A DNA stretch of 1,855 bases. Source: Escherichia coli. GTDB lineage: Bacteria; Pseudomonadota; Gammaproteobacteria; Enterobacterales; Enterobacteriaceae. The notes beneath the pieces are model-generated. The model made no database searches. It was not told where the DNA came from and was given only the letters and a program-made list of their open reading frames with translations. Within the stretch, counting starts at the first letter, position 1. Each line of letters begins with the position of its first letter. The position numbers and the translations under genes are program-made. Positions 1 to 1,298 of the stretch are shown here, piece by piece. The DNA is taken from NCBI RefSeq assembly GCF_003334335.1, contig NZ_QOWQ01000097.1; one strand, given 5' to 3'.

Positions 1-1298
1 CTTTTGCTCTGAGCTGCCGCCGTCGCACTGCCAGCTGCCTCTGTCGCCTTCGTGGATGCCGTCGTGGCGCTGCCCTTTGCTGCTGACGCCTGTCTGGTCG
101 CCTCATCTTTTGAAGCAGACGCAGATGATGCCGATGACGCCGCCGAACTGGCGGACGATGCGGCAGCCGTTTTTGAGGATTCTGCGCTGGTTTCCGACGC
201 TTTCGCGTTCGTCTCGGATGTCTTCGCTGCGGAAGCAGACCTCGCTGCTGCGCTGGCCTGTACAGCGGCTTCGCCAGCCTTCGTTGTGGCTGTTGAAGCA
301 GACGATGCAGCACTTTCTGCCGATTTTCCGGCGGCGGTGGCACTGGCTGAGGCCTGCCCGGCACTTGTTGACGCGGCACTGGCAGATAATGCAGCCGCTG
401 TTTTTGAGTCTGCCGCAGCTGAGGCGCTCTGTCCCGCTGCCGTTTCAGAAGACCTGGCGTTCGTCTCGGACGTTTTTGCCGCCTTCGCAGAATTTGCTGC
501 CGCCGTTGCCGAGGAAGCTGCGCTGCTGGCGCTCGAGGCTGCGTTCGTTTCTGATGATTTTGCCGCCTCTTTTGAAGCCGACGCATCCCGTGCTGAAGTG
601 GCTGCTTCTGACGCTTTCGTGGTCGCGGTGGATGCAGAAGTGGCTGCTGATTGTTGTGACGCTGCCGCATTCGTTTCTGACGTTTTCGCGGCACTGGCAC
701 TGGTAGCTGCCGCGCTTTTTGAGGACTCTGCAGCAGCAGCACTTTTCGATGCTTCACTGGCCTTTGTTGATGCCGCTCCTGCGCTGGAAGACGCTGACTG
801 AGCCGACGACGCGGCCTGTCCGGCTGACGTGCTGGCTGCGCGTGCTGAGCCTGCAGCATCAGTCGCATGGGTTGCCGCCTCACGGGCTGATGTGCGGGCA
901 TCGCTGGCTGACTTCTTCGCGGCTGCCGTGTTCTGTGCCACTGCGGACGCGTTACGCGCCACCTCTTCCACCATCAGTTCAAAACGGCGCAGTGCCTCTG
1001 GCCGGACATCATCCTCCGTCATTGCACCGAGGAAATCATTCAGTGTGCCCGGCTTTGAGTCCTCATATACGGTGATAATCCCGGCGTGTGACGGCGGGAA
1101 TCCCTCCACCAACAGACTGACGCTGTACTGACCATACTCGACGTCCATTGTATAACGCCCGGCTTCATCCGGATTTTCTGAGGCCACTGTGTTCACCACC
1201 ACCGTGGTGCTGTTGCGCCTGGCCTTTAGCTGAATGGTGCAGTTTTGTATCGGCTTACCTGCACCATCTTTCAGTACACCTGAAATCAGTACTGCCAT
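1..1298 (-). CDS. stf: Side tail fibre protein (lambda Stf-like), N-terminal 432 codons; C-terminal part lies beyond the window start (3' partial)
   Basis: Hand translation of the minus strand (codons on plus triplets starting at positions divisible by 3) gives ATG at 1298..1296 and no stop down to position 3. An in-frame stop lies upstream at 1340..1338 with no alternative start between. Protein begins MAVLISGVLKDGAGKPIQNCTIQLKARRNSTTVVVNTVASENPDEAGRYTMDVEYGQYSVSLLVEGFPPSHAGIITVYEDSKPGTLNDFLGAMTEDDVRPEALRRFELMVEEVARNASAVAQNTAAAKK..., then an Ala/Ser/Thr-rich repetitive tract ending ...TASTKATEAAGSATAAAQSK at the window edge. From memory this closely resembles the N-terminal attachment domain and repetitive shaft of phage lambda Stf (orf-401) and E. 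coli prophage Stf homologues. The 64-nt gap to lom and the lom-then-stf gene order match the lambda layout. Missing from the ORF track presumably because it has no stop in the window. Confidence 0.9.
   Translation of the reverse strand, partial: MAVLISGVLKDGAGKPIQNCTIQLKARRNSTTVVVNTVASENPDEAGRYTMDVEYGQYSVSLLVEGFPPSHAGIITVYEDSKPGTLNDFLGAMTEDDVRPEALRRFELMVEEVARNASAVAQNTAAAKKSASDARTSAREAATHATDAAGSARAASTSAGQAASSAQSASSSAGAASTKASEASKSAAAAESSKSAAATSASAAKTSETNAAASQQSAATSASTATTKASEAATSARDASASKEAAKSSETNAASSASSAASSATAAANSAKAAKTSETNARSSETAAGQSASAAADSKTAAALSASAASTSAGQASASATAAGKSAESAASSASTATTKAGEAAVQASAAARSASAAKTSETNAKASETSAESSKTAAASSASSAASSASSASASKDEATRQASAAKGSATTASTKATEAAGSATAAAQSK
3..950 (-). repeat. 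Low-complexity Ala/Ser/Thr-rich repetitive tract within stf (predicted fibrous shaft region)
   Basis: From about codon 115 to the window edge the translation is dominated by A, S and T with periodic K/E/Q. Recurring peptide motifs include AAK(T/S)SETNA (4 copies), SASTATTKA(S/G)EAA (2 copies), a related TASTKATEAA, and ASSASSAASSA (2 copies). Confidence 0.8.
204..692 (-). repeat. Four dispersed copies of a degenerate 27-nt repeat encoding the AAK(T/S)SETNA motif
   Basis: Plus-strand copies: 204-230 cgcgttcgtctcggatgtcttcgctgc; 456-482 ggcgttcgtctcggacgtttttgccgc; 540-566 tgcgttcgtttctgatgattttgccgc; 666-692 cgcattcgtttctgacgttttcgcggc. All are in the same codon phase of the stf frame. Identity is by eye only, not computed. 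Confidence 0.7.

Follow-up and report, generated by a model that had tools for sequence, protein, structure and literature searches.

N-terminal domain and shaft junction of a lambda-type side tail fibre gene in an Escherichia coli lambdoid prophage

The minus strand of nt 1298-1020 in the stretch of DNA analysed here (1,855 nt; the window) very probably encodes the gpStfN collar domain of a lambda-type side tail fibre, carried by an Escherichia coli lambdoid prophage. Both the domain and its anchoring role are already known and structurally solved: it is an ordinary, well-understood component, and throughout we remained within known biology. An earlier note on this DNA had recognized a conserved prophage tail-fibre N-terminal domain, and this is borne out by a Pfam match (PF08400) and by 88% identity to the collar domain of Ur-lambda gpStf. 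The note had also proposed a recombination junction at the end of the domain. The first divergence among shaft families is found after residue 117 (...MVEEVARNA), approximately 60-70 nt deeper into the gene than proposed.

The window contains, in reverse complement, the lom-stf junction of the prophage. The stf ORF begins on the minus strand with an ATG at nt 1298-1296 and extends for 432 codons to the edge of the window, where it runs off; in the source genome, stf has 991 codons and is followed by tfa. The gene order in the source prophage is L-K-I-J-lom-stf-tfa, and the prophage adjoins a truncated ompW gene, yciE, and trpA. A prophage of E. coli strain Ecol_AZ155 is 99.9% identical to the window, and similar DNA occurs in 4918 of 5426 complete E. 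coli genomes, at a median of 2 and a maximum of 14 places per genome. The features of the window are as follows:

1363..1855, minus strand: 3' part of lom, the upstream neighbour of stf, encoding an Ail/Lom outer-membrane β-barrel (PHROG 108, E 1.7e-86; RefSeq annotation of the source locus)
1299..1336, minus strand: lom terminator hairpin (stem 1336-1315), T-run, and G-rich ribosome-binding stretch before the stf ATG
1020..1298, minus strand: very probable gpStfN collar (virion-anchor) domain, codons 1-93; six-stranded β sandwich and short helix, fold 1-91 (PDB 9e7m_Ta, PF08400, PF13620, AlphaFold2 model)
996..1025, minus strand: linker stretch, equivalent to Ur-lambda residues 92-101 (PMC12617516; dip in conservation; low pLDDT)
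948..995, minus strand: conserved first turns of the proximal coiled coil, codons 102-117 (ALRRFELMVEEVARNA), the last part of the block common to close relatives
946..953, minus strand: principal mosaic junction, codon 117/118 (blastn end points; max-chi-square)
897..1298, minus strand: match to Pfam PF08400 (phage_tail_N), residues 1-134, covering the complete 134-position model
2..947, minus strand: Ala/Ser-rich proximal coiled-coil shaft, type A as in lambda, codons 118-432, running off the window (composition, heptad repeats)

The hairpin between lom and stf comprises eight pairs, seven of them G-C, and together with the T-run has the appearance of a strong terminator. Within lom, a 30-nt patch at nt 1717-1746 averages 67.6% identity over 60 loci, as compared to 93-98% in the adjoining bins. 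In the outer-membrane barrel, this patch probably forms an exposed loop that is hypervariable.

Sequence and predicted fold of the N-terminal domain

Codons 1-93 of stf (M...GAM) coincide exactly with nt 1020-1298. The feature described in the earlier note is therefore real, although its strand had been left out and the peptide quoted for it ends at ...GAMTEDD (residue 97, nt 1008), four codons past its coordinates. The note's observation that the first ~95 residues are ordinary and repeat-free as compared to the downstream tract held for entropy, Ala+Ser content, and the repeat map. Specifically, residues 1-93 have a Shannon entropy of 4.06 bits, with 15% Ala+Ser and 22% aromatic residues, Pro, and Gly; the corresponding values for residues 102-432 are 2.73 bits, 62%, and 3%. 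The GC content is 52.7% in the domain versus 61.6% downstream. The three direct-repeat families of the shaft, D1-D3, all lie within nt 100-734, mostly at multiples of 21 nt from one another; a search of nt 1020-1298 revealed no member of D1-D3 and no tandem repeat. The 21-nt (seven-codon) spacing is consistent with a heptad-based coiled coil. The shift in composition is gradual and contains no step: residues 94 to ~115 (TEDDVRPEALRRFELMVEEVARNA) are still ordinary, and Ala, Ser, and Thr exceed 50% only from residue ~111-120 onward.

On the plus strand, two ORFs, at nt 52-801 (249 aa) and nt 56-706 (216 aa), run antisense to the Ala/Ser-rich shaft and look like artefacts of its composition. A comparable antisense ORF, 'orf206b', is annotated within orf-401 in the lambda record J02459.

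Homology searches identified the domain with high significance. Using phmmer, residues 1-94 matched PDB 9e7m_Ta ('Tail fiber protein', 94 aa) with an E value of 2.6e-49 and 88% identity (83/94). Pfam PF08400 matched residues 1-134 over its full length (E 3.2e-72; model positions 1-134 of 134), and was also found when residues 1-100 were searched on their own, as suggested earlier (E 5.4e-57). The PF08400 envelope is longer than the structural domain of residues 1-91, as it extends through the linker and ~33 residues into the coiled coil. Several PHROG tail-fibre families matched as well, the best with E values of 6.6e-132 for the 432-residue protein and 6.8e-67 for residues 1-100. No NCBIfam model was found with the stf protein.

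An AlphaFold2 model of the domain was built on 29 diverse relatives and had a mean pLDDT of 70. It contains strands at residues 3-8, 20-27, 38-41, 48-53, 56-64, and 70-77, and a helix at residues 86-91. Block means of pLDDT were mostly 72-83 over residues 1-90, with a value of 48 at residues 31-40; beyond the domain, pLDDT fell below 50 at residues 100-106, and a long helix spans residues 100-124. At moderate confidence, the model thus predicts a six-stranded antiparallel β fold followed by a helix, as in gpStfN. Indeed, the best PDB match in Foldseek was 9e7m_Ta, with a target-normalised TM score of 0.90 and an rmsd of 2.3 Å over 94 columns. Next came phage neck and tail-tip attachment proteins, namely the XM1 neck, the Bxb1 tail tip, and the A-1(L) neck fibre, followed after the phage proteins by transthyretin-like domains.

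These last matches bear on the idea that the domain is a generic transthyretin-like or Ig-like module that binds a host-surface carbohydrate or protein, and not the virion. Residues 5-81 match Pfam PF13620, CarboxypepD_reg (E 4.1e-7), and there are weak matches to Big_1 and SpaA. Foldseek matches with E values of ~0.01-0.05 include carboxypeptidase D transthyretin-like domains, pilin domains, and a putative carbohydrate-binding protein. The carboxypeptidase D domains reach target-normalised TM scores of 0.64-0.68 to the domain model; entries 5aq0 and 3mn8 were returned with a probability of 1.0 and E values of ~0.02-0.07. Nevertheless, we consider a host-surface role extremely improbable. The PF13620 match indicates membership in a fold class only: domains of this type occur in enzymes and adhesins and have no role in virion assembly, so the likeness is one of fold, not of function. 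Moreover, the closest folds outside Ur-lambda are the phage attachment proteins listed above, a 3.3 Å map shows the 88%-identical lambda domain in contact with gpV and gpM (PMC12617516), and receptor binding by Stf, to OmpC, takes place at the opposite, C-terminal end of the fibre (PMC12617516).

Predicted collar architecture and docking partners

In Ur-lambda, residues 1-94 of gpStf form an antiparallel six-strand sheet and a helix (Yu et al., Sci Adv 2025, PMC12617516). Twelve copies of gpStfN make up a collar around the tail where the last ring of gpV adjoins that of gpM (PMC12617516). The subunits are of two types: in one, the β4-β5 loop touches gpV E63 and gpM R80, and in the other gpM K2 and W6 (PMC12617516). 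Residues 92-101 act as a linker and the trimeric coiled coil starts at residue 102; three collar domains are joined to each trimeric shaft by linkers of ~10 residues, giving four fibres per virion (PMC12617516).

The arrangement in the source prophage corresponds to this. The domain lies at the N-terminus of a long fibre, ahead of a linker and an Ala/Ser-rich coiled coil, and the gene follows J and lom and precedes tfa, which is the lom-stf-tfa order of Ur-lambda. Residues 51-60 (MDVEYGQYSV), the β4-β5 loop region, are identical to those of lambda; in the AlphaFold2 model, the loop sits between strands 48-53 and 56-64. Both docking partners are present: the gpV of the source prophage is identical to lambda gpV at 246 of 246 residues, and its gpM at 104 of 109, with K2, W6, and R80 all kept (locus L092, where gpM and gpV are encoded at 912-1241 and 4646-5386, respectively). 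The note's further claim, that the domain anchors side fibres to the virion, is thus supported by a solved homologue and by retention of the residues that gpV and gpM use for contact. Accepting an anchor rests on three lines of evidence: identity to the Ur-lambda collar domain, the PF08400 match, and the presence of both partner proteins with all of the reported contact residues.

By homology to Ur-lambda, each transthyretin-like β sandwich of ~91 residues would dock on the outside of the tail where gpV and gpM meet, chiefly through the β4-β5 loop. Twelve copies of the domain would close into a collar, and three adjoining domains would lead, through flexible linkers of ~10 residues, into one trimeric Ala/Ser-rich coiled-coil shaft, for four side fibres per virion. 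Such a scheme would make the domain a constant adaptor by which variable shafts and receptor-binding tips are mounted on one tail chassis. Assembly of this collar in virions of the source prophage is inferred from the 88% identity and the conserved partners: the twelve-copy collar has been seen in Ur-lambda only. Relative to Ur-lambda, the domain carries eleven substitutions (window residue first): L4K, A13T, I17V, A39G, T50S, S61I, L63Q, E65D, I74T, K82Q, and G91C. As 11 of 94 residues differ from lambda, and gpM differs at five positions, the predicted docking may be affected. In addition, many lambdoid prophages of E. coli are defective.

This last point raises the possibility that stf is a decaying remnant of a defective prophage and that its domain has no present function here. 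Truncated or split stf annotations are numerous in E. coli genomes, and pseudogene fragments lie at the end of the prophage that adjoins ompW. However, the 991-codon ORF is intact, with tfa downstream and a complete set of tail genes upstream, and purifying selection on codons 1-93 is strong (median dN/dS of 0.06 against 79 relatives). At the three loci whose PGAP calls were examined (pseudogene at L003 and L010, 'incomplete' at L004), the ORF is likewise uninterrupted, over 674-686 codons. Based on these data, decay is very unlikely, and a functional anchor is the preferred reading.

A comparable arrangement is found in T5-like phages, in which twelve copies of p132 (T5) or LtfC (DT57C) around the tail anchor the side fibres (PMC12617516). 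There the collar is made by a protein of its own, whereas the lambda type builds it from the N-terminus of the fibre. Neither T5 p132 nor DT57C LtfC was among the best 50 Foldseek PDB matches of the model.

Homology breakpoints in stf

To map the junctions, 91 loci (11 annotated and 80 from IMG/VR) were aligned to the window in gene orientation. Coordinates in this orientation are given as q = 1856 - window nt, which places the stf ATG at q558. End points were taken from the 88 blastn alignments that cover the domain, with 79 distinct sequences. They were distributed as follows:

q901-907 (residue 115-117): 26 loci
q937-948 (residue 127-130): 4 loci
q979-987 (residue 141-143): 16 loci
q1064 or q1169 (residue 169 or 204): 3 loci
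q1399 (residue 281): 26 loci
q1465-1484 (residue 303-309): 3 loci
q1854-1855, the window edge (residue 432-433): 10 loci

None of the 88 alignments ended at q836-850, the site of the proposed junction, and homology was still alignable up to residue ~111 in all 79 distinct loci. Translations of the different shaft types have ...TLNDFLGAMTEDDxRPEALRRFExMVEExARNA (ending in ARNA or ARHA) in common, and then split into type A (SAVAQNTAAAKKSA..., the type of the window and lambda), type B (EAASQSAAAAKKSETAAASSKN...), and type C (EEAKKNAGEAETSARNAG...). From residue 117 on, 40 of 83 loci were of type B or C. In type C loci, the max-chi-square method located a change at q903-908, with a mismatch rate of 0.10-0.19 before and 0.31-0.39 after. 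Based on the shaft-type split and these breakpoints, the principal mosaic junction was placed at codon 117/118, nt ~948-950. Further homology breakpoints occur at residues ~127-130, ~141-143, 281, and ~303-309.

At the other end, similarity in loci that lack lom homology starts at nt 1315 (q541), directly past the hairpin stem, so that the hairpin forms the left edge of the common stf 5' block. The block of DNA common to close relatives is thus nt 1315-948, from just past the lom terminator to codon 117, and extends beyond the end of the fold. The 134-residue Pfam envelope likewise fits a conserved block longer than the fold.

At the protein level, conservation follows the fold more closely. 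Among 97 representatives, pairwise identity was 0.52-0.88 over residues 1-90, dipped to 0.35 at residues 91-96, was 0.39-0.54 at residues 97-114, and fell to 0.2-0.3 past residue 120. In relatives at 45-60% identity, all invariant columns lie in residues 1-90; beyond these, P100 is the only position conserved at 90% or more. As the limit of a protein fold, then, the boundary given in the earlier note agrees with the published fold end at residues 91-94 (PMC12617516) and with the span of the invariant columns.

As a recombination junction between a conserved anchor and interchangeable mosaic shafts, the same boundary at nt ~1010-1020 fared less well, and we consider it unlikely. In its favour, the fold stops at residue 91-94 and distant relatives confine their invariant columns to residues 1-90. 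In addition, the max-chi-square method detected a significant change in mismatch rate at q813-864 (nt 992-1043) in 12 of 79 comparisons (permutation p ≤0.01), and the median dS of the window's anchor, ~0.70, exceeds the value of ~0.20 at codons 94-116. A step in nucleotide identity across nt ~1015 is therefore present in a minority of comparisons, but the anchor is its more diverged side, the reverse of a conserved anchor next to a mosaic shaft. Moreover, over 79 sequences, codons 1-93 and 94-116 have diverged to about the same extent (identities of 0.895 and 0.878), and patches of mismatches also start and stop inside the domain, near residues ~30, ~50, and ~70. Together with the lack of alignment ends at this site and the RPEALRRFExMVEExARNA segment that types A, B, and C share before parting past residue 117, these data argue for codon 117/118 as the principal junction.

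Protein searches were of limited use for this mapping. BLASTP of the 991-residue protein against the representatives, performed without low-complexity filtering, gave scattered end points, and these were left out because the Ala/Ser-rich shaft aligns with itself out of register. A protein search with residues 1-100 returned fragments of up to 175 aa, many of them cut by contig ends, and was replaced by the search of representatives for end points.

Through the domain, which acts as an adaptor, interchangeable receptor-binding fibres are mounted on the tail of lambda, a modularity that has already served to give lambda-derived delivery particles new targets (PMC11338833). On the domain itself the present locus adds nothing new. 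With respect to fusion sites, natural shaft exchanges in E. coli prophages leave everything up to residue 117 in one piece, namely the anchor, the linker, and ~16 residues at the start of the coiled coil. Residue 117 is thus a more natural place to join chimeras than the end of the fold at residue ~93.

Divergence of the anchor allele and distribution of the domain

The anchor of the window is itself divergent. Relative to the window, the median dS was 0.70 for codons 1-93, as compared to 0.19 for lom, 0.20 for codons 94-116, and 0.19 for codons 118-280. The value for the anchor is thus ~3.5 times that of lom, linker, and shaft, and the edges of the divergent segment lie near the start codon and at codons 86-103. 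Since the anchor is the more diverged side of the step at nt 992-1043, it is the anchor that would be the exchanged piece. Mismatch maps further revealed a patchwork within the domain, with edges near residues 30, 50, 70, and 100.

We considered whether anchors are generally more diverged than their flanks, and rejected this. In all-against-all comparisons of the 33 sequences that span the type A shaft, codons 1-93 were 0.926 identical versus 0.939-0.965 for the flanks, a small excess of divergence; across 79 sequences (the loci and the window), the mean identity was 0.895 for codons 1-93 and 0.878 for codons 94-116, and the excess was absent. According to these identities, most of the large excess in dS belongs to the allele carried by the window, and nt ~1000-1040 marks the edge of a minor patch that is peculiar to this allele.

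The nucleotide alleles of the anchor fall into ~13 clusters, which are found in combination with different shaft types. Tight linkage of the anchor allele to the type of gpV was also rejected at this locus, as gpV is that of lambda while the anchor has only 83% nucleotide identity to lambda's. Identity to lambda is 100% for gpV and 95% for gpM, but only 88% (protein) and 83% (DNA) for the anchor, which indicates that the histories of the tail tube and the fibre anchor are uncoupled. Tentatively, the anchor may be more than the fixed end of the gene, namely a cassette that is exchanged in its own right and exists in long-lived lineages. If so, such lineages could, for example, be matched to self-contacts within the collar or to variants of gpM.

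The domain is widespread. A profile-free search of 1.84 billion representatives yielded 662 proteins at E ≤0.001, of which 80 were at E ≤1e-30. In most of the full-length proteins among the matches listed (~200-1200 aa), the domain is at the extreme N-terminus. In a phage collection, it was found in 321 records, including Stx phages and Gifsy-1, and phages of Serratia, Yersinia, and Aeromonas carry it at 30-40% identity.

Several individual records deserve comment. RefSeq presents stf at L003 (4019-6079) and L010 (4558-6582) as an 'incomplete N-terminal pseudogene' plus a 'phage head spike fiber domain' CDS, and at L004 (4539-6243) as a single incomplete pseudogene. These calls look like annotation artefacts, as translation from the same ATG gives the uninterrupted ORFs described above. 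Two proteins, P0121 (246 aa) and P0001 (174 aa, on a 1,267-bp contig), contain an internal duplication of the anchor segment; the duplicated anchors are probably assembly artefacts, not real tandem domains. In phiP27, the domain heads a second fibre gene, L56 (L006, 4001-5473), at 46% identity, and the neighbouring genes are annotated as baseplate genes. In the Seuratvirus GottfriedDienst (L008, 4001-4582), it heads a 193-aa 'lateral tail fiber protein' at 39% identity.
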